Below are positions 37,715-61,674 of a stretch of DNA of 64,000 bases, piece by piece. The number at the start of each line of letters is the position of its first letter. Position 1 is the first letter of the stretch. The stretch lies in assembly GCA_963762355.1 (NCBI GenBank), contig CAVXKJ010000001.1:24860-88859 (forward strand). Direction: 5' to 3'. Both the position numbers and the translations under genes were made by a program. The notes beneath the pieces are model-generated. The model was given only the letters and a program-made list of their open reading frames with translations. It was not told where the DNA came from and made no database searches. Source of the stretch: an uncultured Candidatus Micrarchaeota archaeon (GTDB lineage: Archaea; Micrarchaeota; Micrarchaeia; Micrarchaeales; Micrarchaeaceae).

Positions 37715-37793
37715 CTAACCAGTCCGTTATTGATGGGATTATATGGCAGCAAATTAATATTAATAGCATGCACTAAATCTTATTGGTGGTCTG

Positions 37794-38246
37794 GTGGAGG
37801 AATGTGAGCTGTGTGGCAAAAGAACCTCGGATGTCTATATAGTGAATGTTGAGGATGTCGAGCTTAGGGTCTGCACCAAGTGTGCAAGCGGCAAAAAAAT
37901 AGTCTCAAAGCTCGTTGAGCAAAGAAAGGTTCCAAAAACATACACAACTGAAAGAAAGAACGATTATGAACTTCTTGTTGATGATTATGGGACTGTGATA
38001 CGCAACGCAAGAGAGCGCATGAAAATTCCCGTTAAGGTACTTGCAGAGTTGATAAATGAGAAGGAGACATATTTACTGCACGTTGAGCAGCAGAAGACAC
38101 GCCCTTCGGAGGCATTGAGAAAGAAGCTTGAGAGGGAATTGGGCATAACACTTGTTGACAAATCAGCAGCAAGCGGAGATAGTTCTCATGGGAGAGGCGG
38201 CGGTGACGGAATAGTTCTTGGGGATTTCATCACAAAGAAGAAATAA
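37794..38246 (+). CDS. mbf1: archaeal multiprotein-bridging factor 1 (zinc ribbon plus HTH)
   Basis: CELCGK...CTKCA ribbon, then an HTH region IRNARERMKIPVKVLAELINEKETYL. Confidence 0.8.
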   Translation: MEECELCGKRTSDVYIVNVEDVELRVCTKCASGKKIVSKLVEQRKVPKTYTTERKNDYELLVDDYGTVIRNARERMKIPVKVLAELINEKETYLLHVEQQKTRPSEALRKKLERELGITLVDKSAASGDSSHGRGGGDGIVLGDFITKKK

Positions 38247-38260
38247 TAGAATGATGTGTA

Positions 38261-39313: not shown

Positions 39314-39356
39314 TTCCTGAAAGTAAAGCGTTATATAACTTACTTCATATAATTCT

Positions 39357-39737
39357 TTGATTCCGATGGAAAATAGGGATGACCAGAGCAACAAGAATAA
39401 TGATGGGAGAAATTGGAATGCGATCACCCGCCATCAGATGGATATTGCATTCGAGAGAATAGTTCCGTTTGTCGAACTGATAGACAAGCATGACTGCATT
39501 GTAATAGTTGTTGAATTGCACGGCTACAATAGCAGGGAGATACAGCTCAATACTGACGGCTCAGTGCTAAATATACATGCCGATGCGCTTGGAAGAACAT
39601 GGAATAAGGGCATAACATTTCCAGTAGCAATAGACCCCAAGAACTCCGAGGCAACATACAACAATGGCATACTTGAGGTGACTCTTAAAAAGGGCTACTG
39701 CGGCAGTGAGGGGTTTGTGCTGATAGAATTGATTTAA
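39357..39737 (+). CDS. Hsp20/alpha-crystallin small heat-shock protein
   Basis: C-terminal ATYNNGILEVTLKK motif. Confidence 0.8.
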   Translation: MIPMENRDDQSNKNNDGRNWNAITRHQMDIAFERIVPFVELIDKHDCIVIVVELHGYNSREIQLNTDGSVLNIHADALGRTWNKGITFPVAIDPKNSEATYNNGILEVTLKKGYCGSEGFVLIELI

Positions 39738-39746
39738 GGTGTAAGA

Positions 39747-39878
39747 ATGCAGATAAAAGTAAAAAGATCGAAAAAGCTGATAGGAAAATCGTATAGGAAC
39801 GTTAGAAAGATAGCAAGGTTGAGAAAAAAGCACAGGAAGACCATTAGGGCAAACAGGAACAAGAGAAAGAAGAGCTAG
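39747..39878 (+). CDS. candidate very basic 43-aa protein
   Basis: Hand translation gives MQIKVKRSKKLIGKSYRNVRKIARLRKKHRKTIRANRNKRKKS. It is not in the track because it is under 60 aa, and it lies 9 nt after the hsp20 stop. Confidence 0.3.
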   Translation: MQIKVKRSKKLIGKSYRNVRKIARLRKKHRKTIRANRNKRKKS

Positions 39879-39931
39879 TCAGTATATACCTCAATAGTGG
39901 CTTTCCTAAAATAATTATCCAGAAATATATT

Positions 39932-40426
39932 TTAATATAAATAGACCCTTTTCTGGGATACTGCTACCGCTGCATCTGCTTTTCTAAGTAATTCATTTGG
40001 TGCTTCTGACTGTTCTTGCGGTGCGGCAGCCTCGCTGCCATTTATTTCTAAAACCACCACACGAGAAACGCCGCCATAACCGTTGTAGTCACAGACGAAC
40101 AGCCCCCCACCGAACCTGCTGTGCACGAGGCAGGCGGCAAGAGACATTGATTCAACTTCTTCGTCGCGAAGGTATGTCCATTGGCCGGATTTTAATTTGT
40201 CTGCAAATACAGCATTTGATTCGGGATCGTTTACTATTTCACTGCCTCTTTTCAGTGTGAGCATCTTTCTTCCTTCCATGCCGTCCGTTATTTCCATTAT
40301 CTGTTTCAGGTTGAAGCCTTCGGCAAATATGAGTTTTTCATATAACTTGCCATTTGCTGCAAAATTTTCAGTAATTATCGGTTTCGGCAATTGCCTTTGT
40401 GTTGTTTTTTTAGCTTCAGCACTCAT
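39932..40426 (-). CDS. hypothetical protein
   Basis: 164 aa with native-like codon usage and no motif. Confidence 0.5.
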   Translation of the reverse strand: MSAEAKKTTQRQLPKPIITENFAANGKLYEKLIFAEGFNLKQIMEITDGMEGRKMLTLKRGSEIVNDPESNAVFADKLKSGQWTYLRDEEVESMSLAACLVHSRFGGGLFVCDYNGYGGVSRVVVLEINGSEAAAPQEQSEAPNELLRKADAAVAVSQKRVYLY

Positions 40427-40570
40427 TTTATCACTTCAGATAATTGTAATTGTTATGATATTTAAGCCTTCCGAATGGGGCTTTTTAAACCTATATTTTT
40501 AGCTTCTTGAGCTTCTGTTATTGATAACAACGTGCATTTCAATAATATTCTCACATATAAGCTAATCTGT

Positions 40571-41221
40571 TTAGTATAGATCTCCAAACATCTGGTTGTT
40601 GAATTCGTATGCAACAGTATCCTCGTTGAAATCAATCTCCTTGAGCATGTCGTCCTTTGCGTTGAATTCCTTCGGGTCCTTGCCATTCTCAAGCACGTAT
40701 ATCGTCGACTTGAATTCATAATATACAAAAACCCTTCTTGCACTATCGTCTATCTTTACAAAAACCCTTGAGGAGGGATTTCCAAGCCTTATAAGCATGC
40801 TGCAGAGAAGTATTGCCTTGTCCATTATGTCACCCATCATGAATGTTATTGCCTCTGTAGGTGTTATCCAGAACTGAAGCGGAAGGATGACGTCCTCTAT
40901 CTCGCGGCTCACAAAATCGAATGCGAGAATGCTTGCATCGTAGAAGTTGTTCGCATATGTGTAATTCATAAACCTTGATTTTACCCATTCTGCCTTTTCC
41001 TTTACCGCACTGGAATCTGGCGTTACAAGAGTTGGAAGCTCGGCAACAGAAAGGTCCTCCTTTTCCTCTATGTAATCCTTGTATCTTGATATTATTGCGA
41101 TATATAGATCATTCAGCCTTCGTATCCTTTCGTTGTCAGCGGCGCCTTCCATTTTTATCGTATACTTATGCCATGCAAAGTAAATTAGCATTTTGGGCAG
41201 ATGCTGGTAGAGGGAAGCCAA
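40571..41221 (-). CDS. hypothetical protein, possibly an inactivated transglutaminase-like fold
   Basis: GDIMDKAILLCSMLIRLGNPSSRVFV resembles the G-x-C...A..L...LLRa.GiPaR core, but has Ile at the catalytic Cys position. Confidence 0.45.
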   Translation of the reverse strand: MASLYQHLPKMLIYFAWHKYTIKMEGAADNERIRRLNDLYIAIISRYKDYIEEKEDLSVAELPTLVTPDSSAVKEKAEWVKSRFMNYTYANNFYDASILAFDFVSREIEDVILPLQFWITPTEAITFMMGDIMDKAILLCSMLIRLGNPSSRVFVKIDDSARRVFVYYEFKSTIYVLENGKDPKEFNAKDDMLKEIDFNEDTVAYEFNNQMFGDLY

Positions 41222-41315
41222 TAGGAAGCTATATAAACCGATCGGAAAAGACTTATATATATGGGCAGCGGTATATTATCACGTGATAAATGCGTAAATG
41301 GGATAAACTGATACT

Positions 41316-42341
41316 ATGGCCTCACCAAAAGAGCTGGCATTATGCCATGTGATAAAGAACGGAAGCATTCTATTGATAAAGGGAGATTCAGGACTAAATG
41401 ATGGGAAGTGGAATGCTCCATCAACTGAGATTGAAAGCGGGGAAAGGCATGACAAGGCGGCAATTAGGGCAGTATTCCAGCAAAGCGGTATTTTTGCAAA
41501 CAAAGTAATTAATCATGGCACAATAAGAATTTTCCTTAACGGCAAGGTGGAATATGATTACAAGATTCAATTATACTCAACAAAGGTTTTCAGCGGCGAC
41601 CTTAGGCCAAACATACAGGGAGAGGCCCGCTGGTTCAATACAAGCGAAATTCCATTTTACGAGATGTGGCCAGACAACAAGTACTGGATGACTCTTCTTC
41701 TTGAGGGAAAGAAGTTTGACGCTGATTTCTTCCTTGACGAGAATAACGAGACTGTTGTCAAGTACCAGATAAGGGAAAAGAAAGAGATTGTAAAGAAGGC
41801 ACTACCTTTGATAATTGTGGCTGCAGTTATCACACTTCTGATATTTGGGATAGTGAGCAGCGGTATACTCAACCAGAAGGCGGCGGCAAAGCCGGTTGCA
41901 GTGCTTACTCCGCCAAAATCTACAACTTCAACAACTACCACTATTGCAACAACTACAATACCAGCACCGCAGATAATCCCTCCTGCGCCTATTTCACAGA
42001 GTGAATTCACTAATACGACATACATTTATTACATATATTATTCGGGAAGTCCTCCACAGGCAGAGACATATTATGCCGTGGCAAACGGAACTGGAATAAG
42101 CAACTGGAAAGTGCTTGTGGGAAACCCTGTATATTTGAAGAGCGCGTACTGTTCAGTTTACAGCTTCTACACCTATTGCACCAGTTCAATCAACTATGCG
42201 AATTCAAACAGCAGCAATTCAACAGCAGCTACAGCTACATCAACAAAAGAGATAAGGATAGCAAATCCGGAGTGCCTTGCGCTCAAACCATCAAACCCAA
42301 ATATATGCTACAACACATATTACAATACAACAAGCAGCTGA
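41316..42341 (+). CDS. NUDIX-like domain fused to a TM helix and a Thr/Ser/Asn-rich C-terminal region
   Basis: The N-terminal Nudix fold has a degenerate box (GERHDKAAIRAVFQQSGI). It is followed by the TM segment LPLIIVAAVITLLIFGIV, then STTSTTTTIATTTIP and a Tyr/Asn/Ser-rich tail with Cys residues. Confidence 0.6.
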   Translation: MASPKELALCHVIKNGSILLIKGDSGLNDGKWNAPSTEIESGERHDKAAIRAVFQQSGIFANKVINHGTIRIFLNGKVEYDYKIQLYSTKVFSGDLRPNIQGEARWFNTSEIPFYEMWPDNKYWMTLLLEGKKFDADFFLDENNETVVKYQIREKKEIVKKALPLIIVAAVITLLIFGIVSSGILNQKAAAKPVAVLTPPKSTTSTTTTIATTTIPAPQIIPPAPISQSEFTNTTYIYYIYYSGSPPQAETYYAVANGTGISNWKVLVGNPVYLKSAYCSVYSFYTYCTSSINYANSNSSNSTAATATSTKEIRIANPECLALKPSNPNICYNTYYNTTSS

Positions 42342-42345
42342 TCAA

Positions 42346-42987
42346 ATGAGTACGAATACAAAGACCCGTTATACAAAAGCGCAACTAGACACAGTGCTTG
42401 GAGTAATAAGGATAAGGCAAGGTGAGTACAATCTCGAATCTTCAATACGTGATATTTTTAAGTCTGGCGGCAGACTGGTTTATACCAATTTATGCGATGG
42501 CAACACTTACAATAAAGTTGTTGATACTTTAGGATTTAGGGAAGGCAGTAGCGCAGAAACTCTTCTTAATAAGATCTATATCGATGTTGTTATAGCAGTA
42601 AATAGAGATATTACTATGATTGGAGGGGCCTTTTTAGACGCTAGTGCTGAAAGAAAATTTTTAAGTGATAACTCATATAAACATGCAGTTAAGAGTTTTG
42701 TTGAAAGATTTCGATCCCGGCTTAGTGGGTTTGGTTTGGATGATATGGAAAATATAAATGGCGCGATAGTATATGCTATAACTATACCTGCTATATGTGA
42801 TATTAGAGGGTGTGATATTAGGCTTGCCTCATTTGTAGCACCATTAATCGAAGAACTAAAGAATTCAGAAAAGAGCGATAGACTAAAAGCGTTGATAGAT
42901 TTCCTTGTCAAAACCAACGATGTAAAACAGTTTGTAGGAGCTGGAGAATTTACAGATATTACTTCGTATATGAGAGTGGTGCATTAG
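42346..42987 (+). CDS. orphan hypothetical protein
   Basis: 213 aa from the ATG at 42346, with A/T-rich codons. Confidence 0.45.
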   Translation: MSTNTKTRYTKAQLDTVLGVIRIRQGEYNLESSIRDIFKSGGRLVYTNLCDGNTYNKVVDTLGFREGSSAETLLNKIYIDVVIAVNRDITMIGGAFLDASAERKFLSDNSYKHAVKSFVERFRSRLSGFGLDDMENINGAIVYAITIPAICDIRGCDIRLASFVAPLIEELKNSEKSDRLKALIDFLVKTNDVKQFVGAGEFTDITSYMRVVH

Positions 42988-43053
42988 CATTTCTTATTAT
43001 CTTGATTTGGCATACTAATTTTTAAGTTTTCCTTGCTCCATACTATTGTTTGC

Positions 43054-44784
43054 ATGGACAACAAGCTTATTGCGGATATCTTCAATACGATTGCTGCAAT
43101 GATTAGCATTGAGGAGACGCCCAGTTCCCGCTTCGAGGTGCGGGCGTACCAGAAGGCTGCGCTTACAATTGGAACGCTCCAGGAAGCGGTTGAGGACATA
43201 TACAGGAAGGAGGGCAAGGCTGGGCTTATCAAACTGCCTGGCATAGGCAGGGGGCTTGCTGACAAGATAGAGGAATATATAAAAACAGGGCATATAAGGA
43301 AATACGAGGAGCTTCAGAAGAGGTACCCAATCGACATGAAGGCCCTTACAAGCATAGAAGGGGTAGGCGCAAAGAAGGCTATCGCTCTTTATAGTGAGCT
43401 TGGGGTCAAGGACATAGGCACATTGAAAACTGCAGTAAATTCGCATAAGATCAGGACGCTTCCAGGATTTGGGGAGAGAAGCGAGAGCATGATAAAGAGG
43501 GGCATTGAGTTGCTCGAGGGGCAGAAGGGAAGGCTATTGCTTGGTGATGCGCTGCCTGTTGCTGAGTCAATGATTGATAGGCTTCTCAAAAGCGGGCTTG
43601 TCGATAGTGCTGTAATTGCAGGATCTGCGCGCAGGATGAGGGAGACTGTAGGAGACCTTGACATACTTGCGCTTTCAAAGAATGGAGGAAAGGTAATGGA
43701 TTTCTTCGCTAAGATTCCTGAGGTGTCGGACATTATAGCAAAGGGCCCTACAAAGAGCACCGTATCCCTCAAGATAGGCCTGAATTGCGACCTTAGGGTT
43801 ATATCTCCAGATAGCTTTGGGGCTGCACTGCAGTATTTCACCGGGAGCAAGGACCACAATGTGCAGGTGCGGACAATAGCTGTAAGGAAGGGATATAAGC
43901 TGAATGAGTATGGGCTGTTCAAGAAGAATGGCAGACTTATGCAGACAAAAGATGAGAAAGAGGTATACGGCAAACTTGGCATGGACTACATGCCTCCGGA
44001 GATGCGCGAGGCAAGGGGCGAGGTAAAGCTTGCGCAGGAGCACATGATACCAAGGCTCGTAGAGCTGGCTGACATAAGAGGTGACATGCATACGCATACA
44101 AGTGATACTGACGGCGCAAACAGCATAGAAGAAATGGCAGAGTACGCTGCAAAGGCCGGGCTGGACTATTTTGCAACAACAAACCATACAAAAAGCCTTG
44201 GTATAGCGCGAGGAATGAATGAAAAGCAATTTGAAAAATTCTTCAAAAAGGTCGACAAGCTGAATGATTCATTGGACGGCAGAATTCATATACTGAAAGG
44301 CGCAGAGGTTGACATACTAAAGGATGGATCGCTCGACTTGTCTGACGAATGCCTTAAATCAATGGATTGCGTAGTAGGCGCTGTGCATTCGTATTTCAAG
44401 ATGAGCGAGGCAGAAATGACAAAAAGAATATGCAAGGCTCTTGATACCGGCCTTGTGAACATATTAGCGCATCCTACGGGAAGGGAATTGAATGCAAGGG
44501 AGCAGTATCCGCTTGACATTGAAAAGCTGTTCGAGAATGCGGAGCGCAACAAGGTTACTCTTGAGATAAACTCATTCCCAAGCAGATTGGATCTTAGCGA
44601 CACCAATATAATGAAAGCCTCAAAATACAAGGTAGACTTCTCAATAGACACAGATGCCCACAGGACATCCCACTTTGCATTCCTGAGATACGGGGTCGGC
44701 ACCGCAAGGAGGGGCTGGCTTACAAAGGAAAGAGTACTGAATACGCTTACTTTCAAGGAGATTGTCAAGAAACTGGAAAGATAA
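43054..44784 (+). CDS. family X DNA polymerase with C-terminal PHP domain
   Basis: HhH motifs (LPGIGRGLADKI, IEGVGAKKA), the nucleotidyltransferase motif GDLDIL, and the PHP motifs DMHTHTSDTDG and AHPTGR. Confidence 0.9.
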   Translation: MDNKLIADIFNTIAAMISIEETPSSRFEVRAYQKAALTIGTLQEAVEDIYRKEGKAGLIKLPGIGRGLADKIEEYIKTGHIRKYEELQKRYPIDMKALTSIEGVGAKKAIALYSELGVKDIGTLKTAVNSHKIRTLPGFGERSESMIKRGIELLEGQKGRLLLGDALPVAESMIDRLLKSGLVDSAVIAGSARRMRETVGDLDILALSKNGGKVMDFFAKIPEVSDIIAKGPTKSTVSLKIGLNCDLRVISPDSFGAALQYFTGSKDHNVQVRTIAVRKGYKLNEYGLFKKNGRLMQTKDEKEVYGKLGMDYMPPEMREARGEVKLAQEHMIPRLVELADIRGDMHTHTSDTDGANSIEEMAEYAAKAGLDYFATTNHTKSLGIARGMNEKQFEKFFKKVDKLNDSLDGRIHILKGAEVDILKDGSLDLSDECLKSMDCVVGAVHSYFKMSEAEMTKRICKALDTGLVNILAHPTGRELNAREQYPLDIEKLFENAERNKVTLEINSFPSRLDLSDTNIMKASKYKVDFSIDTDAHRTSHFAFLRYGVGTARRGWLTKERVLNTLTFKEIVKKLER

Positions 44785-44836
44785 TACTCAGATTACGACA
44801 TATGACGGGCATCATACGACAGTATAAATATCAGGG

Positions 44837-46351
44837 ATGCTGCTATTATATTGTGATAAATTGGCATTGCTAAAGAGGACTTTGTCAAGCGGAGCTGCAT
44901 TTAGAGGAGTAGGTGCAGCCATAGCAAGCGGCGCTATCGCATATGAAATCGGCCCGGTAATCAATAAGGTATTTGCAGCCCAATCCGAGACGCCGATGTA
45001 CAATGGCTCTTATGCTACTGGCTTTGTGTTATCAGGCGTTCTTGCGACAATGGCTGTTGACTCTATCGCAAGACCAGTTTTAACATACTGCAAGGAAAGC
45101 AGCTACTCAAGATACATAAGAAAAAACGTCCCGGAATTGGCACAGAATGCACAATTAGATCTAAATCTAATATCTGTAATGTACCTAGATGCCATAGTTG
45201 CAAAAGGCGCCAGCAAGGGGTTCAGCCGAAAAAGAGTATACACTCTTTTAGGTGCTGTTTATGAGAGTGCTGAGCCGTGCAACCTTTTAGAGGATATGAT
45301 TCCTAAAATGCCTAGCGAGATTCAGAAAAATCTCATTAGGAAGACTAGAGTACTAGCAAGCGAAAGGCTTGAGGTTTTAGAGAACTGCGAAGAGACAATT
45401 AAGAGAAATAAAGATAAACCTATGAAATTTACATCCGATGGCAATAGCATTAGAGCTATACTAAGGGGTGTTGAATTCAATGGCGAATTATACATTACGA
45501 AGCTAGAGGATCCCACTACGCATGCAATTGGTTCTCTTCCGCAGGACATACGCGATCCCCAGCGCAGACACTTAGATCCTATAAGTATACAACTTAATCC
45601 GAATACAGGCAGGTATGAACCATCTAGAAGATATGTACAACCAATTATAGATGCACGTGATGACTTTGGAGACAAAGATAAATTGCTTGATTTTCAGTTC
45701 TTTCGCAATCCACTTATTGGTGCTGCATTAGGAGGAGTTGCAGCGATAATGGATATCAATCATGGAAATAATATTGGGCTTACAGGACTCGCCATTGGCG
45801 TATTTGGAGGAGGAGCAATAGGCTTCATGCCACAATTGCTTGATCCGTATAGCAGGCTTCATAATAGTATAGAGGAATGGATGTATGATAAGGAGAACCG
45901 CCTACCTTTGTATCACCGTCCAATCGGATGGTGGGCATATAGATTAGGAGGTCTTGTCTATGCAGATAGTTATGTTCATCATCAGATAAGACATTGGTTT
46001 ATGACTGAAAGGCATTGGTATTTGTTCCTGCCCCTATGGCCGTTTAGAGTGGGATACGAAACTGCATGGCTATTGGCTTTGAAGGCACCACAGGATTCAA
46101 TAAAAGTAATCGGAGGATTTATTGTAGATAAGTTTTTCAAAGAGAAAGTAAAACAGTTGTATAAGATATGGAAGTTCTCTGCAGGATTAGCTCTTACATA
46201 TGAAACCGTGGCACATGTCATAGAACCTGGATTGCAGAGCATTGGATTAAGCGACAAAAGCAGGGATGTGTTGGAGGTCGGCATAGGAGCCGCTGCCTAT
46301 TATCTTGTACCTAAAACCGTCGATGTGTTGAGAAAGGCTTTGAAAAAGTAA
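44837..46351 (+). CDS. orphan Gly-rich membrane-associated protein
   Basis: 504 aa with glycine-zipper-like segments (GAAFRGVGAAIASGAIAY and LIGAALGGVAAIM...GLAIGVFGGGAIGF). No known domain. Confidence 0.5.
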   Translation: MLLLYCDKLALLKRTLSSGAAFRGVGAAIASGAIAYEIGPVINKVFAAQSETPMYNGSYATGFVLSGVLATMAVDSIARPVLTYCKESSYSRYIRKNVPELAQNAQLDLNLISVMYLDAIVAKGASKGFSRKRVYTLLGAVYESAEPCNLLEDMIPKMPSEIQKNLIRKTRVLASERLEVLENCEETIKRNKDKPMKFTSDGNSIRAILRGVEFNGELYITKLEDPTTHAIGSLPQDIRDPQRRHLDPISIQLNPNTGRYEPSRRYVQPIIDARDDFGDKDKLLDFQFFRNPLIGAALGGVAAIMDINHGNNIGLTGLAIGVFGGGAIGFMPQLLDPYSRLHNSIEEWMYDKENRLPLYHRPIGWWAYRLGGLVYADSYVHHQIRHWFMTERHWYLFLPLWPFRVGYETAWLLALKAPQDSIKVIGGFIVDKFFKEKVKQLYKIWKFSAGLALTYETVAHVIEPGLQSIGLSDKSRDVLEVGIGAAAYYLVPKTVDVLRKALKK

Positions 46352-46412
46352 GTACGCTAACAATATATGTCCAATTAAGGATAAATTCTGCATTGCATAT
46401 ATTTTCTTTTTG

Positions 46413-49400
46413 CTACATGTATTTTGAGAGGTTGAACTGCTTTGTCGGTGCAGCCTCCGCATCGCCTCCGAATACATTGTTTATCTCGTCTTTTATCAGA
46501 AGCAGCCTCTGCTTAAGATATGGCTCAAGGTTGTATCTGTTCGCAAGGTCTATCGCCATTGTAAGGTACTTCTCTATGCTGCCCTTTGATATTGTCAGCA
46601 CTATCTTCCCATTGCACCTTGTGCATTTACCGACAAGCGGAACTCTCCTGTATTTTGCGTTGCATGCAACGCACCTGAACTGCTGCTTTGAGAATGAATG
46701 CATGTTTCCTATAAGGTCTGGTATGAAATGACTCATTATGAGCCGTCTTGCCGTGTCTTGGCGGTCAACGCTATAGAGCATGTCCATCAGCCTGAACTGC
46801 GCCTCTATTTTCTCCTTCATGCTATTTAGCTTCGTATACATGCTTCTGTGGGGAGCACTAATTATTGCCGTAGAGCCGCTCAGGTGGGTGAACATCAGCC
46901 CTTCGTACTCTCCCTTTTTATTTGAAAGCCTGCTTTTTACTATATCAACGGAGAGTTCTGATGGGGGAAGATACTGGAATGTCTTGCTGTAGAAATCAAG
47001 CCCAAAGCCATTTGTGACCTCCATCTCGTGGACCTCATCATCAACCTCTCCTGGCTCTACCCTTATTGTAAGTATTAGCGGCGCATCCATTGTGCCGCCT
47101 ATTGTAACTGGAAGATAGCTCCTTGAGAAATTTATAAGGGCGTCGAGAAGCAGCATCGTCGTGTCCTCATCGCCGTCGCAATTCCTTCTTCTTGCTGATA
47201 TGACATAAGGATGGGCAAACCCTACATTTGCATCTGTGAATCCGGCTATCCTGCACAGCACCCCTGCAGATGTATGCGGCGATAGTGTTATAACATAGTG
47301 GCCGACAAGCTCGTCTATCGATGATATGTTGTAGAACGACTCCAGATGGTAGAACCCGACCAGAAGCTGGTCTATGAATCTTGCCACATTCAGGAAATGC
47401 TCTGCGCCCTTCCTGTTGAGTATTACATCCTGGTGCCTCATCTCTACAAGCTGGTCCCCATTCTTCAACTCGTTTCCGAGGTAATCATTTGTGTATCCTA
47501 ATTCGTTTAACTTATCAACGCCCACCATCGCCTCGTTGGGATAGAAATGGGTCATTGGCATGTCTGTTGCATCAAATCTTGAGGTGCCATCCTTGAATAT
47601 GTGCACATTATTATTTGCACGCAGTATTCCCTTTTCCATTGGCTCGCATATCTTGTCCCTGCTGAATAATCCCTTTACGCCCTTTATGCCCTTATTGAGC
47701 TGGCGCTCGCCTAGTTCCTTGAGCGCACTCTCGACTACCTCATTTATGTTTATGATGCGCTGCTCCTTTGCAAATGCGCTTCCGCCGCAGTTCATGCACT
47801 TCTCCGTATTCGATATCATTCCGCAGCTTGCGCATGTCAGCTCAAGCCTTGCATTTGATTTGTGGGTTTTGCAATATGGGAGGAACGTTGTCTCCTTTCC
47901 CGCAATGCACCTGTACTTTGCTATCTCGATGCTTATGCCTGCACCACCAAACTTCCTTTTCTCGCCGTTGTACGCCTTGTAGATGCTCCTCTCCCTGCCA
48001 CCCGCCTCGGCTACTGGAAATATGATATGCGGTGATGGCTTCATGAGGCGTTCCCTTGCCTTCTCCGGCCTTCCTATTCGGGCGCCAATCCTTGTAGACC
48101 GCCTCATCACCATGAATTGGGATACAGAGTTTATTGCATCGAGTGTTGACATACCGGAATCTGATCTTTCTTTTGCCTTCATGGCAAGCCTGCCATTGCT
48201 TTCGGCAAAGCCAAGAGTTGCAAGAATGCTTTGGGCATGCTCCCCTCTGATAATTACTGATGATTCCCTTTCCGCATGTGGGATGCATATCCTTTCCGCA
48301 AGATCAACGATTGATGTGGATTCGCTCACCTTTGGAAGGCTTATCGATGCAACATCAAAGACAGACTCGCCGCTCTTTTCTATGCTTGAAAGCAGAATAG
48401 CATTGCGCAGTTCGGCAAGCTCATCGGGGTTTATCTCAGAATAATCATAAATGTAAAGAGGATGCATGGGCACCTTATGTGCAAGTGAGATCTCATATGC
48501 GCTTTTGAATGATATCCCATTCGGAATTTCTCCTGAATAACCTGATGCCCTAAGCTGTGCCTCCCAATATTCCTCAACATAGCTTGTTGGCTGATAGCGG
48601 TGTATTTGATTTCTTGAAATCGCCGTATGTGACCAGTATGTCACCAACAGCTAATATCTTCCTTACCATTGGCACCAATTCTCTTGCAATAGCTGCATCA
48701 TTTATGCGGAACGCCTCCCCATTGTCAAGCTTCACAAATGGTCCCTCTATGCTGTCTACTGGTGCTGCAACGCATCCCTTCCCCGGCTTTTCTATCCTAA
48801 GTTGCGTGCCAGTAGCTATGAAGTCGTTGAGTATTATCATCGTCGCAGGGCTGAAGCCCTTTGCTGCTATGCCTGTGAGCCTTGATCTCCCATATCGCAG
48901 CCTGAAGCTGCCGTTCATTCCAGGATAGGAGAGCACAGGCCTGCCGGCAACGAGCTCCTGGAGGAATACGGCATTGTTCTTATCCTTGTCCTCTCTTTGG
49001 GCACGGGCTCTTCTCTACTTTTATTATGTTGTTGAGCCAGCTCCAGTCGAGATCAACAGCCTTTGTGTACTTGAGCACGCTCTTTGCTTTCTGCGCTATG
49101 CCCTCGCATACAACAAGTCCTATTCCGCCGCGCACCCTGTTCGTGATAGGCTGCTCCTTTCCCTTGCCATCAAGCCTTTTTATATTCCTGTGTATGCTTA
49201 CCTCTATCTTTTCAGTTGGCATGCCGTCGACGCAGACAGCACAATTCTCCAGTATATGTCGCTTATGTCGCTCTCAGGCGGATAGTATTGGAGACGTGCG
49301 ACATCTTGAATTATATATCTGTATTTCCTCTATGTACCTCTCGATCTCTGATTGCTGTGCCTTGTATGCACCTACCCCAAGGAGCTTGCGCGCATAGTCA

Positions 49401-49881
49401 GCAAGCGCCACTGACATTGCCGCACCAGTCCCTCCAGCGCCCCTTATGGGCCCCGCATAAAGAAGTGCGATATAGTCAGACCCGTCACTATTCCTATGCA
49501 TCTCAACTTTTTGTATTCCTTCTGTAGGTGCAACAACTATACCCTCGGTGAGTATTGCAAGGCCTACGCGAACCCCAAGCAGTATCTTCTCGTCGTAGTT
49601 TTCTTGTCGAATGAAGATCCTGTGCATATCTCTTTTACCATCTCGAAGGCAAGCTCTTGGCGGCCTTTTCCAGTGACCCTTGCCTTTATCATCTCGGCTA
49701 TGCCATCTATGCCTATTATCCCGCCTACCCTTGATGCAAGGTCAGGCGCAGGCACTATCTCAACATACCTTTTCGGATCGTACCCCCGCTCGCGTGCATG
49801 AGTTGCAACTATGTTTATAGACTCGAAGTCTCTCTTAAGCATCTCAAAATACTCCTCGGTTTCCATCTTATCCCTGGCCAT
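46413..49881 (-). pseudogene. polC: DNA polymerase D large subunit DP2, interrupted by about 5 frameshifts
   Basis: Five consecutive minus-strand ORFs together spell a colinear DP2: 49881-49564, 49627-49274, 49222-48980, 48936-48574 and 48647-46413. Recognisable segments are ...[52 protein letters not shown] and C-terminal zinc modules. Each junction is repaired by a 1-nt shift. Confidence 0.9.
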
Positions 49882-51380
49882 CGAAGTTCACTATAGTGAA
49901 CTTGTCGCTCTTCGCCTCGTATATCGGAACCATGCATGGGGTTGGCACATGCCCGAGCGAAAGCTGGTAATCTGTTGTTGACTGCCATGTGCCGCTGTTT
50001 ATTATGTCAACGCCATGGTAGTTTGCCATGCCATTCTTGTGCACGTGCCCCATGTGCAGTATGTCGGGCACCCTGTCTATCACCATGTTGTCGTTCTTGC
50101 TGGGCACTATTATGTTGCCCCCGTATATGGGCGAGAGGTGCCTCCTCTTTAGTATCTCTGTCATTGCCTTCTCAGGCTTTGCGTAGCTGGTGCCCGGGAA
50201 TTGCGCTTATAACCGAATCAAGGGATGTTCCGTGATATGCGAGTATGTCTATGCCGTGCAGTGTGAGGAAGCTCGGGTTCGGGATTATGTGCACGTTATC
50301 CGCCTTGAAGTCTCCTACAAGCTCATTGCTGAGCTGCGGCTGCGGTTCTGCCCTCTGCACCGCATCATGATTGCCAGGTATTATGAAAACCTGCACATAA
50401 TCGGGAATCATGCCTATGAAATTGAAGAATATCTTGTATTGGGAATATATGTCAAGCACTGTGAGGCTTCTGTCCTGGTTCGGATAGACGCCGATTCCAT
50501 CCACCACATCACCGCCTATGACAAGATACTTTACCTTGCCGCAAGATCCTCGCGCTTCTCGTAGTTTCCATTGAGCCACTTTATGAAATTGGAGAAATTC
50601 TTTTCCATGAAGAACTTGCTGCCCACGTGTGTGTCTGATATGAATGCTATCGCCACGTCATCTTCAGCCTGCTTGCGCTCCTTTATGGGTATGTCAGGCC
50701 AGACAAACTCGGATGCTATTATAAAAGGCCCTGATATCTTCCCGCTTATTGCTATTACCTCGTCATCAACAAGATGCCGGGCCTTCTCGAAGAGCTCGCG
50801 TGATTGCTTGGAGGAGCCGTTCATGAAAATTATCTTGGCATCAGCGGTCTCGTCATCGATCACGACCATTATGTTTCCATTCTTGGTTGTAATTTTGTTC
50901 GCTATTATTCCCAATACCGTTATCTCGCGCCCATTTGAGTATGACTTTACGCTTTCCAGATTGGCAACCATGCCATTCAGGCTATTCCTGTGCTGCAGTA
51001 TTATCTTCCTCAGTCTTTCAAGCCTGCTGCGGAAGTATGAGACAAATCCATCAACAGTACCGTTTGAGTATTCGATCGGCTTGTTCGATATGCATATAAC
51101 GTGCATCTATCTCCGATGCAGAGGCCTTGAAACCGCTCTTCTGCAGCATCTCAATTGGCTTGGGGGATTTTTCAATCCTTATCTGGTCGACTATGTTGGA
51201 TATGTCCATCTTGTTTATTATGTTGAAGCTTGGATCAGAGATCATTCTCTCTATTATCCTTGATGCTATCGCCTCTATGTCAAGCCCTGAAAAGTCTCCC
51301 TCATTGACATCAGCCGCAACCAGGACACCAAATTTCGAAAGTTTCCCTACGAGATTCTTGACAGAATTTTCACCAGGCAT
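49868..51380 (-). pseudogene. polB: DNA polymerase D small subunit DP1, interrupted by 3 frameshifts
   Basis: Four colinear ORFs: 51380-51051, 51106-50531, 50579-50172 and 50164-49868. Calcineurin-like phosphoesterase motifs are present (ISDTHVGS, GGDVVDGIG, IPGNHDA, GHVH). Junctions lie near 51095, 50555 and 50170. Confidence 0.9.
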
Positions 51381-51381
51381 G

Positions 51382-51651
51382 TCAATTACTGGTCTTTATC
51401 GATTCCAGCATGCTAAGTATGCTCCAGACACCGGTGCGCGCCTGAGCAGGAAGATTTATATCGTTGCTTATCGAGTCCATGCTGTATATTGCGGATGAGA
51501 CCCGAACAACATAATCACCATCGGAACTGAGATGATCCTTCGCCTGCTTTACTGCGCTCTTCACATTCTTTGGAACGCTTGTGTCGCTCAACAGCATATC
51601 TATCTGCCTCTTTATCTGGTCTATAAGTTCAGCTACCTCCTCATCGTTCAT
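51382..51651 (-). CDS. UPF0147-family protein
   Basis: 89 aa. DTSVPKNVKSAVKQAKDHL ... SNDINLPAQARTGVWSILSMLE matches the UPF0147 pattern. It ends 1 nt before the DP1 start. Confidence 0.7.
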   Translation of the reverse strand: MNDEEVAELIDQIKRQIDMLLSDTSVPKNVKSAVKQAKDHLSSDGDYVVRVSSAIYSMDSISNDINLPAQARTGVWSILSMLESIKTSN

Positions 51652-51737
51652 TTGTACACCCCTTAGGAATTAGACCTAATACTATCAGTTATAAAGTATT
51701 TATTCCTATCTGAATAGCCGCGACAATGCATTACTAG

Positions 51738-52466
51738 CTATACAGGTACAGGCCCTAGGAAGTGTCCTATCAGATAACCGGCAAATCCTGCAGCCATTCC
51801 TATAATCAGCATCTGCATCCCGCTTTTCCATATGGAGCCAACAGTGGTTTTTGCCTCGTAAGCCCCGATTATAAACAATGCAATGGCACTGATTGCTATA
51901 GACCATATAACTCCAGTAAGTATAGCACTACCTATGAAGAAGAATGGGATTAACGGGATTATGGATCCGAATACTGCTGCAACACCGACTATGGCAGCGC
52001 TTTTCAGCGCTTCGGATTTTTCAATAGGTGAAAGTTTGAGCTCGTATGCCATCATGAATTCAAGCATAGCCTTTGGATTTGAGGCGATCTTATCGGTCAT
52101 GTGCTCAAGCTCCTTGCCTTTATAGCCCCAGTTCTTGAATATCTCCCTGACCTCCTCACGTTCCTTGGCAGGCACCTCTTTCATTTCACGCTTCTCCCTC
52201 TCGACCTCTTTCAGGTAGAGCTTGCGTCTTGCCAATGTTGAGGTGTACGCAACTGCACCCATTGATATTGATTCCGCACCCAGAGCGGCCAAAGCCGCTA
52301 CAAATATTATACGGATATCCGAAGTGGCTGCGCTTACCCCGAGTATTATGCCTAGGACATTTACTAAACCATCCTGCCCTCCAAGAATAAAGTTTGAGAG
52401 AAGAGTAGGCCTGGTATGATGCTCCTCATTATTGAATAGATTGAATTTCAACATCGTATATACCAT
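51738..52466 (-). CDS. VIT1/CCC1-family iron/manganese transporter
   Basis: ILGGQDGLVNVLGIILGV motif, a central cytosolic helical segment and C-terminal TM segments. Confidence 0.85.
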   Translation of the reverse strand: MVYTMLKFNLFNNEEHHTRPTLLSNFILGGQDGLVNVLGIILGVSAATSDIRIIFVAALAALGAESISMGAVAYTSTLARRKLYLKEVEREKREMKEVPAKEREEVREIFKNWGYKGKELEHMTDKIASNPKAMLEFMMAYELKLSPIEKSEALKSAAIVGVAAVFGSIIPLIPFFFIGSAILTGVIWSIAISAIALFIIGAYEAKTTVGSIWKSGMQMLIIGMAAGFAGYLIGHFLGPVPV

Positions 52467-52470
52467 TCTG

Positions 52471-53817
52471 TCAATTGCTTTTAACCTTTCCCTTCTTGTA
52501 ATTAGTGGTTATGCCATTTGTAATCCTAGCAATCACTGCACATGATGCATATGAAAGCAGAAAGACTGTAACCATTACCACGACAATGCCGAATGCCTCT
52601 ATTCCAAGCTGGGAAACTGCTGCCATTCCACCCCCGAAGAGGAGACCATTTGGCAGGCTCGGGTTTCCTGAGGCAGCAGCAAATGCTCCCTGCGCAAATA
52701 CTGCAATCATCAAAACTCCGAACAATCCACCCACAAGATGGCCGGGAAATAGGCCAACAGGATCAGAGAACCATTTCTGCCTTGAAAACCACCTGTTTGC
52801 GTATGTAAATAGAAGTCCTCCGAGCAGGCCGAGGATGGCTGCGCTTCCAGGGCTTACAAATCCCGCAAGTGGCGTTATTACTATAAGACCCATAAGTATT
52901 CCATTGGTTACCGTGAGTATGCCTGGCTGCTCCTTTGCTATTAGATAGCCGAACAGCATGGTGGAGAACATTGCTGTTGCCGCAGCAAGGAATGTTGTAA
53001 CGACTACTGTCATTGCGCTACCATTGAAGGCAAGCACACTTCCGGGGTTAAAACCAAACCATCCGATCCAGAGAAACAGTATTCCAAGTGCAAGCCATTC
53101 GCTGTTTACTTTTATGGGGACTTGCGGACTTTTGGTATATCCTTTTTTCTTTTCCTCTTTCCATATCTGAAGTAGGATGCCAAATCCTGCAGCTGCAGCG
53201 GCGCCATGCACTACTAGTCCTCCGGCAAAATCACGGAATCCAATGCTGTAAAGCCAGCCTGTGGGATTCCATATCCATGCAGCAGGAAGTGTCCAGATTA
53301 TTATGAAATAGACAAATGAGTATATCACAAATGAGGTAAGCTTCATCTTCCTAAGAACTATTACGCCGACAAGTGCAAGAGTCACTGATGCGAAGGCAGC
53401 CTCAAACAGGAAGTATGTACCTGTTGAGAGTCCGGTATTGAAATAGCTGGCAGTCATTGACCACCAAGCTCCATTAAGCAATCCTATTGAATTGCTCGAG
53501 AAGCCACCAAGGAAAAGACCGTTATAGAATGGATTTCCTATAAGCCCGTGAAGGATTGTAGGCGCAAATGCGATGTTGAAGCCTATGAATGCCATAACAA
53601 ATATTGCCGATCCTGTTATCAGTATTGTCTTGAGCAGACTGCGTGAGAATTTCTCGCCGAGCTCGCCAACCTCAAGAAAGCCGACAGCTATAGTCATCAG
53701 AAATACAAGAAGAGCTGCTATCAAAACCCAAAGGTTGTTTATCAATGCTATAGGATCCGCCACATCCCCGCCCCAATAAAGAATGCAAGGGAGCAAATAA
53801 AAACCCTTTGCATGCAA
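52471..53817 (-). CDS. amt: ammonium transporter
   Basis: 448 aa and polytopic, with Amt/MEP motifs (DFAGGLVVHG..., GWFGFNPGS). No adjacent glnK. Confidence 0.95.
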   Translation of the reverse strand: MHAKGFYLLPCILYWGGDVADPIALINNLWVLIAALLVFLMTIAVGFLEVGELGEKFSRSLLKTILITGSAIFVMAFIGFNIAFAPTILHGLIGNPFYNGLFLGGFSSNSIGLLNGAWWSMTASYFNTGLSTGTYFLFEAAFASVTLALVGVIVLRKMKLTSFVIYSFVYFIIIWTLPAAWIWNPTGWLYSIGFRDFAGGLVVHGAAAAAGFGILLQIWKEEKKKGYTKSPQVPIKVNSEWLALGILFLWIGWFGFNPGSVLAFNGSAMTVVVTTFLAAATAMFSTMLFGYLIAKEQPGILTVTNGILMGLIVITPLAGFVSPGSAAILGLLGGLLFTYANRWFSRQKWFSDPVGLFPGHLVGGLFGVLMIAVFAQGAFAAASGNPSLPNGLLFGGGMAAVSQLGIEAFGIVVVMVTVFLLSYASCAVIARITNGITTNYKKGKVKSN

Positions 53818-53930
53818 GAGTTAGAAAGAACAGAAGGATTCGCATTTGTTTATATCTATAAAGTCTACAGTTGATCTTGAAAAGTGGGATCTGAACCTTA
53901 AGTAGTGTGCCTTGGGATTCGGATCCATTT

Positions 53931-54581
53931 TTATATAATGTATGGTATTATCCTTGCCGTGCTTTTAGAATATTCTTTGTACTTGCTTCCGAACCTGTTG
54001 ACCAGTGCCTTTTCCTCTACGCTTATGCGGTATACATAAGCAAGCGACAAGAAAGCAGTATATAATATTGCAATAAACAATGATCCTGTCACTATTCCGA
54101 ATCCTAAGATTATGAGTAAACCGCCAGAGTATCCAGGATGCCTTACGAATCTGTACGGGCCCTTTGTGATGAGCTTTTGAAGCCTTGAAGTCACTACGAA
54201 ATAGGTGAAGGACCTGCCTAGGGTATAAGTTGCCCATAATCTTAATGATTCACCTGCTATAATCAAAATAATGCCTAGAGCTATTGCGGACAAAGGCAAC
54301 ATCAAGTAGCCAATTTTTATCCCTAATATGTTCGTTCCTACAAGCAGGAAAATACCTAAATATTCAGCAGAGTATACTAAGAAAAACGAGAGCTTGTCTT
54401 CCTTTATAGCAGCCTTTATTATAGATATGATGCCCATATGTGATAATTCCTTGTGGTACTTTAATGGTACGAATATCATCTGATTGAGTATCTGTAGTGT
54501 CTCAGAAACACCCACAAAAAAGGAGCTGAAAAGTAGCAACTCTGAGAACCCAAAGATAGTAGGCATGCAACACACGAGCAA
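53931..54581 (-). CDS. isoprenylcysteine carboxyl methyltransferase (ICMT/PEMT) family membrane protein
   Basis: TKGPYRFVRHPGYSGGLLIILG motif. Confidence 0.8.
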   Translation of the reverse strand: MLVCCMPTIFGFSELLLFSSFFVGVSETLQILNQMIFVPLKYHKELSHMGIISIIKAAIKEDKLSFFLVYSAEYLGIFLLVGTNILGIKIGYLMLPLSAIALGIILIIAGESLRLWATYTLGRSFTYFVVTSRLQKLITKGPYRFVRHPGYSGGLLIILGFGIVTGSLFIAILYTAFLSLAYVYRISVEEKALVNRFGSKYKEYSKSTARIIPYII

Positions 54582-54656
54582 TTGATTAAATTAATATATT
54601 GATTATGTAGTGCTGCTTTTAAGCCTAACACTGCGGGCTTCATCTTTCAAACATTA

Positions 54657-54670
54657 CGCCTTGGCCGGGA
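54657..54670. repeat. direct repeat copy 1 of a tRNA 3'-end core (att-like)
   Basis: CGCCTTGGCCGGGA is identical to 56688-56701. Its 12-nt core CGCCTTGGCCGG also occurs at 56151-56162. Confidence 0.8.
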
Positions 54671-54754
54671 ACCTAACTTTTATTGAGGTTCCGCAGTATT
54701 TATAAGCCACCACCAAAAGCATTAAATATATTCACATACTGAATAATTCATTAG

Positions 54755-56137
54755 GTGAATATTATTAGGTTTATTAACAGAGAGGAAGAGCTTGCCAGGC
54801 TAAGGGAAATAAAGATTCTTTCAAAGGACAAGTTATTTGTCGCAATAATATATGGACTCAGAAGGATAGGCAAAACACGGTTGTTGATAGAGTTCATAAA
54901 GAATGATGGACTTTATTTCTTTGTAAATAAGAACAAAACATCATCAGATCTGCTAAATGAATTTCAGGGCATATTAAAAGAAAACAATATTTTGGGGGAA
55001 CTGGAAACTTTACCATCTTGGGACAAATTTTTTGAGATTTTAACATCAAGAAAACCATTAACTGCTGTTTTTGATGAATTTCAAAATTTTGCTTTTGTTG
55101 AGCCTGCTGCTTTTGGCATACTCCAGAAAACTATTGATTTGAATGAGAACAAGAGCGGTATGATAATCCTATCAGGATCTTTGATCGGCCTTGTGAAGGA
55201 TCTCTTTAAGAACAATAAGGAACCATTGTATGGTCGGGTTAAGTTTAGTAAAAAAATAGAACCGTTGAGTCTAAGGTCATGTGTTAGTATTGGAAAAGAG
55301 CTTGGTCTTGAGCCAGAGACGCTATTAAAGCTTTATATGGTATTTGGCGGATATCCAAAGTACTACGTTACACTTGAAGACTACAAATCTGAAAGCCAGA
55401 CCATGGATGTAATTCTTGATCTCTTAATTTTTAATAAGAATGCGCCATTGGAAGACGAAGTAAATACTATACTATCGCAGGAATTTGGGAACAGAAGCGG
55501 AATTTATTATTCGATTATAGAGGCAATAGCAACAGGCAACAATACAATATCGGCAATTGCTGGCTATTTGAATGTGCCTGCAACTTCAATAACCCGCCAG
55601 CTAGGTGAGCTTAAAGATTATTTTGAACTTATAGATCTAGAAATGCCCTATCAGGGTAAAAGAGGCGTATATAGGGTAGTTCATCCATTCCTTTACTTTT
55701 GGTTTTCAAAAATATATAAGAACCAGTCTGATTATGCCTCAAGAAAGCCAGAATTCATAAAATCAGCAAAGTCGGATCTCAATGTCTTCTTTGGAAGAAG
55801 ATTTGAAGTGTTAGCAAAGGAATTCTTAACAAATAAATTGAAATTTAGTCGATCGCATAGGCAATGGGGAAAAATTCCAATGGCAAAAAGTGGTGAAACT
55901 ACTTACGAGATTGATCTTATAGGAGATAATAATGATGGTTGTTATGCTTTTGAATTTAAATGGAAAGATCTTGATTATATAGAAGCAATAAGAATAATAG
56001 AGAAACTTAAAAGTAAGTGTGGATATGTCCAGGAATTACCAAAGAACCCTAGATTTGGAATCGTTGCAAAGAAAATTACAAACAAACAAAAAATATTAGA
56101 TGCTGGTTATCTGGCTTATGATTTAAGCGATTTCTAG
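54755..56137 (+). CDS. archaeal AAA+ ATPase (Arch_ATPase N-domain plus DUF234-like C-domain)
   Basis: FINREEELARL..., Walker A GLRRIGKT and a DEFQ Walker B-like motif. The C-terminal segment YEIDLIG...AFEFKW is nuclease-fold-like. Confidence 0.8.
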   Translation: MNIIRFINREEELARLREIKILSKDKLFVAIIYGLRRIGKTRLLIEFIKNDGLYFFVNKNKTSSDLLNEFQGILKENNILGELETLPSWDKFFEILTSRKPLTAVFDEFQNFAFVEPAAFGILQKTIDLNENKSGMIILSGSLIGLVKDLFKNNKEPLYGRVKFSKKIEPLSLRSCVSIGKELGLEPETLLKLYMVFGGYPKYYVTLEDYKSESQTMDVILDLLIFNKNAPLEDEVNTILSQEFGNRSGIYYSIIEAIATGNNTISAIAGYLNVPATSITRQLGELKDYFELIDLEMPYQGKRGVYRVVHPFLYFWFSKIYKNQSDYASRKPEFIKSAKSDLNVFFGRRFEVLAKEFLTNKLKFSRSHRQWGKIPMAKSGETTYEIDLIGDNNDGCYAFEFKWKDLDYIEAIRIIEKLKSKCGYVQELPKNPRFGIVAKKITNKQKILDAGYLAYDLSDF

Positions 56138-56150
56138 ACTACCAAATATT

Positions 56151-56162
56151 CGCCTTGGCCGG
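56151..56162. repeat. direct repeat copy 2 (att-like core)
   Basis: CGCCTTGGCCGG, 14 nt after the ATPase stop. Confidence 0.75.
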
Positions 56163-56218
56163 TCTTTATTCGTATGTTTAACACCTAGTCTTGTGTCTTT
56201 GCAAAGAGGCGAGGAACC

Positions 56219-56530
56219 TTAGCTACCTTTCACCATTTTACGTAGTAATTTTGTTATAGAATGTGTTGCTTTCAGTCCGTATATACCCAAAGATGAAGCT
56301 ATAAGTGCTACGGAAGTTTCAACACCGAAAACAATATTTGGATGTTTATATTTTGCTAGGGTTGATATTCCAATACTTGTTACTGACAGTCCTATAGCTA
56401 TATATGATATTGCTGTATTTCTAACATTTCGTCTTTGTTCTTTCCAGCTTTCAACGCTTATAGGAAAACCAGTTTTGGGGTCTTCTATCGTTTTTCTATC
56501 TTTATATATACCGACCATTTCATTACCCAA
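56219..56530 (-). CDS. small 2-TM membrane protein
   Basis: 103 aa with two hydrophobic helices (AISYIAIGLSVTSIGISTL and VETSVALIASSLGIYGL). Confidence 0.45.
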   Translation of the reverse strand: MGNEMVGIYKDRKTIEDPKTGFPISVESWKEQRRNVRNTAISYIAIGLSVTSIGISTLAKYKHPNIVFGVETSVALIASSLGIYGLKATHSITKLLRKMVKGS

Positions 56531-56687
56531 GATATACTTTTTCCTTGGATTTAATAAACCTTTTCTATTTTTGGATTTACTAGGTATGATACAAATCTTA
56601 GGGTTTTAATTCCAGTTAGGGATTCGAACTCTGGGTTCGAAACCCAATCGACGACAAGAAAAATCCTAGACGTCAAAGTGGGTTCGA

Positions 56688-56732
56688 CGCCTTGGCCGGG
56701 ATTCGAACCCGGGTTACAACCGTGACAGGTCG
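56688..56732 (-). pseudogene. tRNA 3'-portion remnant (T-arm plus acceptor 3' strand)
   Basis: The minus strand reads CGACCTGTCACGGTTGTAA-CCGGG-TTCGAAT-CCCGG-CCAAGGC-G. No matching 5' half was found. Further T-loop-like GGTTCGA / TCGAACC fragments lie at 56619-56646, 56679-56687 and 56791-56803. Confidence 0.6.
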
Positions 56733-57012: not shown

Positions 57013-57017
57013 TTGGC

Positions 57018-61661: not shown

Positions 61662-61674
61662 CGCTGAACCTCTT

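Follow-up and report, generated by a model that had tools for sequence, protein, structure and literature searches.

Frameshifts in the DNA polymerase D operon of a metagenome-assembled Micrarchaeota contig are probably local consensus errors

The DNA polymerase D (PolD) operon discussed here lies on a 93,937-bp metagenome-assembled contig from an uncultured Candidatus Micrarchaeota archaeon, from which a stretch of 64,000 nucleotides, referred to throughout as the window, was analysed. Both genes are encoded on the minus strand. The small exonuclease subunit, DP1, spans 49868..51380 (~503 aa when corrected) and the large catalytic subunit, DP2, spans 46413..49866 (~1150 aa when corrected, with an alternative ATG at 49881), and the two sit within a conserved gene order of Amt, VIT1, UPF0147, DP1, DP2, a 504-aa protein and PolX. 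As deposited, three frameshifts divide DP1 into four minus-strand ORFs (51051-51380, 50531-51106, 50172-50579 and 49868-50164), and five frameshift events divide DP2 into five (49564-49881, 49274-49627, 48980-49222, 48574-48936 and 46413-48647), so that an uninterrupted DP2 frame of ~1150 codons is missing from the deposited sequence. Searches by tblastn with intact orthologues accordingly pass through frames -3/-1/-3/-1 in DP1 and -2/-1/-2/-3 in DP2. The preliminary description of this DNA had already reported the four and five colinear ORFs, together with at least eight frameshifts and no stops beyond those that the shifts cause, and all three statements hold: eight events of 1-2 nt were recovered by protein-to-DNA and nucleotide alignment, and no in-frame stop is left in DP1 or DP2 once they are corrected.

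The eight events, all given on the minus strand, were defined by frameshift-aware protein-to-DNA alignment together with a nucleotide alignment that included four relatives. The first (51094..51095) is one extra nucleotide, where the relatives read ACA-GCAT and the window reads ATATGCAT; the second (50540..50542, event at 50541) is the loss of one nucleotide in CTTGC-GGCAAG; the third (50195..50198, event at 50195) is one extra nucleotide within CCCGGG; and the fourth (49596..49597) is again a loss of one. The fifth and sixth (49257..49303) form a compensating pair, +1 at 49303 and +2 at 49257-49263, which leaves ~13 codons in a frame differing from that of both flanks. A loss of two nucleotides, equivalent to +1, in a variable linker makes the seventh (48994..48999, event at 48999), and the eighth (48594) is one extra nucleotide, where the relatives read CCGCTG-CAGCC and the window reads CCGCTATCAGCC. 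All of these fall within 2.5 kb (48594-51094), and the final 2.2 kb of DP2 is clean. The junction positions first given, including that of the compensating pair at ~49225-49275, agree with these to within ~15-45 nt.

Once corrected, both proteins have the features expected of a normal PolD. The three DP2 domains, PolC_DP2_N, PolC_DP2_central and PolC_DP2_cat, are present in order with near-complete Pfam profile coverage (PF03833, profile positions 1-270/271; PF24844, 7-368/372; PF24846, 4-299/299), the catalytic NxDGDED motif of the double-psi beta-barrel is preserved as RRRNCDGDEDT, and the Zn-binding cysteine clusters are retained as CASCG...CMNCG and CVACN...CTRCNG. Corrected DP2 also matches the PDB chains 6KNB_B and 6HMS_B at E ~1e-157. 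DP1 has the Mre11-like calcineurin-type phosphoesterase domain and the polymerase subunit-B fold, with matches to PF00149 (Metallophos) and PF04042 (DNA_pol_E_B), and its phosphodiesterase motifs, expected as DxH, GD, GNHD and GHxH, are read as ISDTHVG, GGDVVDG, PGNHD and MGHVH. Identity to the nearest relative (L001) is 83% for DP1 and 79% for DP2. Conservation was further assessed at alignment columns that are ≥95% conserved, using 116 homologues for DP2 and 69 orthologues for DP1. The window deviates at 0/339 such columns over the whole of DP2, at none of the 143 within its frameshifted N-terminal 430 residues, and at none of 110 in DP1, which for the affected part of PolD overall amounts to 0/253 highly conserved columns altered. 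The two genes contain neither nonsense codons nor larger deletions, every indel being of 1-2 nt, and the damaged stretch therefore shows indels alone, with no excess of substitutions or nonsense codons. A decaying pseudogene would be expected to have gathered missense and nonsense mutations and deletions of several bases beside its frameshifts, a picture that this stretch does not fit.

A second cluster of six frameshifts lies in an unrelated gene, a membrane-anchored P-loop ATPase on the plus strand (60406..62000; homologues of 480-640 aa), at ~60577, 60615, 60706, 61053, 61324 and 61614, and thus within about 1 kb (60.6-61.6 kb) of a low-GC, mobile-element-like region. Here too no in-frame stop is left after correction, and a 258-aa fragment of the ATPase found no match beyond the source contig. 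No split was found in the other conserved genes, so that the damage is patchy and falls in unrelated genes. The genes for Lhr, PolX, the M50 protease, Amt, glyA, priS and FtsZ, which had been described as uninterrupted, are indeed intact by full-length Pfam profile coverage, as are those for FEN1 and the ribosomal proteins. When the window was compared by blastx with the ORFs of relatives, frame breaks with multiple support occurred in PolD only, and no frameshift was found in any other testable core gene of the window. The earlier contrast of eight frameshifts in 5 kb with one in the remaining core sequence needs amending on this evidence: the eight PolD events occupy 2.5 kb, the single frameshift elsewhere has no counterpart in the core genes tested, and the second cluster, in the ATPase, points to patchy sequence quality. 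Two further candidates for split genes were discarded, namely a NUDIX gene and its 213-aa neighbour (41316-42987) and the overlaps among ribosomal-protein ORFs, since in both cases relatives and an independently assembled contig carry the ORFs as genes in their own right, with matches to full-length profiles.

The local sequence at the fourteen PolD and ATPase sites is indistinguishable from background. A homopolymer longer than four occurs at none of them (0/14), and an XXXYYYZ heptamer is found at only two, where the indel is in both cases an extra base, so that a -1 slip would not correct it. An association of the indels with homopolymers or slippery sites was therefore rejected, there being no long homopolymer and no usable slippery site. 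Such a pattern, with background-like context, is that expected of random low-depth consensus errors.

Among 80 related Micrarchaeota loci PolD is split across frames in none, and none of the shifts seen here recurs, which is as expected if the interruptions are artefactual. These loci include seven from MFD (Microflora Danica, Nanopore) metagenome-assembled genomes (MAGs), and the idea that PolD is generally error-prone in related long-read MAGs was set aside on the same count.

Run ERR12036785 also has an independent assembly in the public Logan set. Three of its contigs match the window on both sides of PolD, 22.8 kb in total, and over the 11,986 + 5,106 + 1,638 bp read they are 100% identical to it with no indel differences. 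On the left, a 16,022-bp contig (L081) covers 30801..46822, of which bases 34837-46822 were read and are identical and gap-free; on the right, a 5,106-bp contig (L082), also identical and gap-free, covers 51610..56715. Neither a contig nor a gene product was found for the stretch between them (46823..51609), which takes in the PolD operon except for the final 410 nt of DP2. No PolD, whether frameshifted or intact, was found among the Logan products of this run, and the gap is negative evidence that offers no sequence at variance with the window. Moreover, its first 1.8 kb (46823-48594) is free of frameshifts, which we count against an artefact. Two PolD fragments, P0095 and P0122, are present only in the source contig. 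Exact-product look-ups of the PolD fragments returned no match and likewise failed for some apparently intact genes; such look-ups also fail trivially, where a different start codon is used or a gene runs across a contig end, as illustrated by VIT1, which is 238 aa in Logan and 242 aa as an ORF here. Protein searches with corrected full-length DP2 and the N-terminus of DP1 returned only the source contig's own fragments as same-species copies, and none of the collections searched by protein, JGI included, yielded a PolD allele of >79% identity. Sensitivity was imperfect, as a search with the variable middle of DP2 returned no match and missed even the window's own fragment. No repeats that would hint at a cassette or duplication were found in the window flanking the unsupported stretch.

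Taken together, we consider it highly probable that the frameshifts mark places in a metagenome-assembled genome where the consensus is poorly supported, and that the real PolD operon is intact. This rests on damage confined to indels with conserved residues untouched, on the same damage in an unrelated ATPase, on Logan flanks that are identical but with nothing over the operon, and on a PolD that is unsplit in each of the 80 relatives. The contig of this DPANN archaeon would then carry a normal, functional PolD operon in a conserved neighbourhood, the eight frameshifts would be uncorrected 1-2 nt consensus errors absent from the organism, confined to a 2.5-kb patch in which few reads, or conflicting ones, backed the consensus, and a second such patch at 60.6-61.6 kb would have damaged the ATPase. 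As to the cause, we infer that a consensus of long-read or hybrid type suffered from low depth or from a mixture of alleles. Of the two readings offered in the preliminary description, a local sequencing or assembly problem is thus the one supported, whereas a recent inactivation of PolD is hard to square with the mutation spectrum and would call for further coincidences.

Such an inactivation, genuine and very recent, whether throughout the lineage or in a sub-population only, with replication taken over by a polymerase of family B or by a second polD copy elsewhere, appears unlikely. The indels do stand in the deposited sequence, the assembly otherwise looks accurate where Logan matches it, and DPANN genomes are reduced and host-dependent, gene loss being common in the group. 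Against this, eight indels without a nonsense codon, a larger deletion or a conserved-site change do not resemble neutral decay, under which at least about eight changes at conserved sites would be expected if substitutions outnumber indels several-fold. The unrelated ATPase shows the same pattern, the relatives keep PolD whole in 80/80 cases, the frameshifted fragments are missing from the ERR12036785 Logan assembly although their flanks are present, and a second polD copy was sought within the window and not found there. PolD is, furthermore, the essential replicase in those Euryarchaeota in which this has been tested.

Quite unlikely too, in our view, is a consensus drawn from a mixed population, in which two or more alleles, present side by side for the PolD region and for the ATPase, would fragment the k-mer graph, and consensus building or polishing would yield a hybrid with spurious indels. 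The artefact would in that case stem from real strain heterogeneity rather than from low depth, and it fits that the Logan contigs end near the operon boundaries, as they would at a branch point, and that some members of the population may lack the mobile-element-like region of the ATPase. The protein searches, however, revealed no second allele above 79% identity in any collection, and the mixing of alleles should also have added substitutions, of which there are none at conserved sites. That all fourteen PolD and ATPase frameshifts are real and fixed, through a replicase only just lost or through some unknown recoding or editing that preserves the protein, is very unlikely. Its second form, in which real shifts are bypassed in expression by programmed ribosomal frameshifting, transcriptional slippage or RNA editing, accords with the perfectly kept coding information flanking every shift and is nevertheless extremely improbable, as the shifts run in both directions, have no A or T runs at their sites, coincide with a heptamer at just two sites, where a -1 slip would not put the frame right, and are conserved in none of the 80 relatives; we know of no archaeal recoding system at such a density of frameshifts.

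If uncorrected consensus error is indeed the explanation, gene calls are unreliable in at least two patches of the contig, at 48.6-51.1 kb and 60.6-61.6 kb, and it would be a mistake to take the deposited PolD fragments, among them products of 684 aa and 191 aa, for pseudogenes or for a sign that this genome lacks PolD. Were the frameshifts real, the loss of an essential archaeal replicase, or recoding within it, would be remarkable. The case also serves as a worked example of how a check of conserved columns separates frameshifts of the error type from those of decay.

Among known systems, poly(A) transcriptional slippage, which rescues frameshifted genes in the reduced genomes of endosymbionts, and programmed frameshifting in replicase genes, bacterial dnaX among them, need long homopolymers, or slippery heptamers with stimulatory elements, and are conserved among relatives with one event per gene. 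PolD as deposited resembles them in that a shift of one base within an essential gene carries the coding sequence over into a different frame, and differs in all three respects, that is in its slippery sites, in conservation and in the number of events per gene. The case can also be compared with indel errors of long-read or low-coverage assemblies. Indels that break up genes have been documented as errors that persist in long-read (meta)genome assemblies of low coverage (PMC9262707; proovframe, bioRxiv 10.1101/2021.08.23.457338; Kastor, PMC12007338) and have been documented for Flye/Medaka soil MAGs (PMC12313526); there, as here, indels of 1-2 nt split conserved genes into colinear ORFs without accompanying substitutions or nonsense codons, occur in patches and in unrelated genes, and are not shared by relatives. 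In well-covered Nanopore or HiFi assemblies residual errors typically lie in long homopolymers, whereas no site does so here, which suggests that local depth was very low or that the reads were mixed, rather than a systematic basecalling error. Compared lastly with archaeal PolD of known structure, from Pyrococcus abyssi (6HMS, 6T8H) and Thermococcus kodakarensis (6KNB), the operon has the same arrangement of DP1 followed by DP2, with all three DP2 domains and the DP1 phosphoesterase domain, and it is set apart from its 80 Micrarchaeota orthologues solely by the eight interruptions of frame in the sequence as deposited.

The operon for DNA polymerase D (PolD), which encodes the small exonuclease subunit DP1 (49868-51380, minus strand) and the large catalytic subunit DP2 (46413-49866, minus strand), appears in the ORF list for 45.5-52.5 kb as nine colinear minus-strand ORFs. 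Four of these belong to DP1 (51051-51380, 50531-51106, 50172-50579 and 49868-50164) and five to DP2 (49564-49881, 49274-49627, 48980-49222, 48574-48936 and 46413-48647). With intact orthologues as tblastn queries, DP1 runs through frames -3, -1, -3 and -1, and DP2 through -2, -1, -2 and -3. The preliminary description had counted at least eight frameshifts, and eight events were indeed placed, in agreement, by frameshift-aware protein-to-DNA alignment and by nucleotide alignment with four relatives: 51094 (+1), 50541 (-1), 50195 (+1, in CCCGGG), 49596 (-1), 49303 (+1), 49257 (+2), 48999 (-2, equivalent to +1) and 48594 (+1), all on the minus strand. They fall inside 2.5 kb, leaving the final 2.2 kb of DP2 uninterrupted. 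The compensating pair previously put at about 49225-49275 corresponds to the indels at 49303 and 49257, between which 13 residues are out of frame with both flanks. As had also been claimed, no stops occur beyond those that the shifts cause: the corrected genes contain none in frame, are 83% (DP1) and 79% (DP2) identical to the closest relative, and recover in Pfam all three DP2 domains at nearly full profile length together with the DP1 phosphoesterase domain.

The 744-aa C-terminal DP2 piece matches the solved DP2 chains 6KNB_B and 6HMS_B (E ~1e-157) and is 76% identical to the best related loci. A scan of species-representative genomes gave 80 such loci, labelled nearly all Micrarchaeota or Micrarchaeia, which assigns the window to an uncultured DPANN archaeon of this group. 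PolD is split across frames in none of the 80; in the relatives examined (L001, L008 and L038), DP1 (~501-506 aa) and DP2 (~1148-1152 aa) are single ORFs. Synteny is conserved: Amt, VIT1 and UPF0147 lie upstream of PolD, and downstream of it come a 504-aa protein and PolX. In the closest Nanopore MAG (L002, MFD05512.bin.2.41; positions 8731-8903), the first-ATG DP2 ORF has 1093 aa against ~1150 in other relatives; tblastn finds no frame change there, so the difference reflects a start-codon or in-frame difference rather than a frameshift. Several DP1 homologues from other assemblies (P0124-P0127) have just 157-373 aa despite long contigs (21-271 kb), and truncated DP1 calls are thus also present in other public MAGs.

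Multiply supported frame breaks were confined to PolD when the whole window was compared by blastx with every ORF of the 80 loci. The other long genes had been described as intact, and this holds for Lhr, PolX, the M50 protease, Amt, glyA, PriS and FtsZ, which cover their Pfam profiles in full, as do eRF1, MscL, ZnuABC, DUF373, RNase HII, FEN1 and the ribosomal proteins S17, L14, L24, S4e, L5, S8, L6, L32e, L19e, L1, L10 and P1. It does not hold for a membrane-anchored P-loop ATPase (60406-62000, plus strand; Walker A GTSGQGKS, Walker B VDEAH; homologues 480-640 aa), whose ORF pieces lie at 60384-61160, 60976-61329 and 61302-61661. Tblastn and frameshift-aware alignment to a 64% identical reference (P0132) place six frameshifts in it, at 60577, 60615, 60706, 61053, 61324 and 61614, and no in-frame stop remains after correction. 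Indels therefore form two patches, PolD (3.2 per kb) and the ATPase (5.8 per kb), with none detected elsewhere in the window.

The ATPase, which has weak collinear matches to a PHROG carrying the annotation terminase large subunit, sits in a low-GC region (56.5-64 kb) resembling a mobile element. The 3' part of the ATPase region recurs in a direct duplication of ~300 bp (61936-62262 and 62270-62557; 89-96% identity, differences mostly substitutions), and the repeated sequence takes in the peptide '...MGYEIQT.ARKDAVMANA..VPITWVACDENVLKNIKQETGDKD'. At the transition into this region, 56530-57462 (~930 nt) has no ORF above 44 aa, matches neither Rfam families nor tRNAs, and may be an integrated-element boundary. 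Elsewhere, a DDE transposase (PF01609; 4655-5608, plus strand) flanked by short fragmentary ORFs marks an IS element, whereas the region around it is compact. In the ribosomal-protein operon, a 186-aa ORF (19288-19848, plus strand) separates the genes for S8 and L6. It has no match in Pfam or PDB, and the pentapeptide FPISE occurs both in its C-terminus and in the L6 N-terminus.

In the protein collection, the PolD fragments of the window (P0095 and P0122) come only from a single 93,937-bp NCBI/ENA contig. A look-up of PolD-neighbouring proteins led to Logan contigs, an independent public assembly, of run ERR12036785, which match the window at 100% identity without gaps over 34837-46822 (L081; the whole contig would cover 30801-46822), 51610-56715 (L082, ending within the ORF-poor stretch at 56715) and 58275-59912 (L083). 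Agreement is thus perfect on both sides of PolD, and the contigs break off 410 nt into the DP2 3' end and 230 nt upstream of DP1. The intervening hole (46823-51609) is frameshift-free over its first 1.8 kb. Protein search and exact look-ups found no PolD from this run, frameshifted or intact, which is negative evidence from imperfect tools: exact-product look-ups can fail trivially (VIT1 has 238 aa in Logan against a 242-aa ORF here), and one word-indexed search did not recover even the fragment from the window itself. Look-up likewise found no copy of the ATPase fragment in the independent assembly.

We consider it very probable that the PolD frameshifts are an assembly artefact. On the simplest account, the PolD operon and the ATPase would lie in stretches with little or conflicting read support for the deposited consensus, where uncorrected 1-2 nt indels would have been left. 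Genuine inactivation of PolD is very unlikely. Judging from general mutation spectra, neutral decay that has reached eight indels is expected to bring several-fold more substitutions, some at conserved columns. Of the columns at least 95% conserved, however, the window departs from 0 of 143 in the part of DP2 that carries the frameshifts (N-terminal 430 residues), 0 of 196 in its intact C-terminal part (116 homologues for both) and 0 of 110 in DP1; PolD has no nonsense codons and no indel above 2 nt, and the unsplit genes of all 80 relatives also argue against inactivation. Local consensus failure could stem from chance low depth or from strain heterogeneity, and a form of the same artefact driven by heterogeneity seems distinctly improbable. 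No homopolymer longer than 4 occurs at any of the 14 indel sites in PolD and the ATPase, and their context is that of the background, which also speaks against systematic homopolymer errors. Recoding by programmed frameshifting or slippage has next to no probability, since long homopolymers are lacking and slippery-type heptamers occur at just two of the 14 sites, both with an extra base that a -1 slip there could not correct.

Set against known systems, the PolD interruptions do not behave as a decaying pseudogene, with neither stops nor conserved-column changes, nor as a programmed frameshift, given the few heptamers and the unsplit relatives. They fit a recognised type of error, indels in an assembly consensus: gene-fragmenting indels are well documented in low-depth long-read assemblies (PMC9262707; bioRxiv 10.1101/2021.08.23.457338; PMC12007338), and error-related low coding density has been reported for low-coverage archaeal MAGs in a Flye/Medaka Nanopore catalogue (PMC12313526), to which some of the related Micrarchaeota MAGs among our matches belong. 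Once corrected, this is an archaeal PolD of the ordinary kind.
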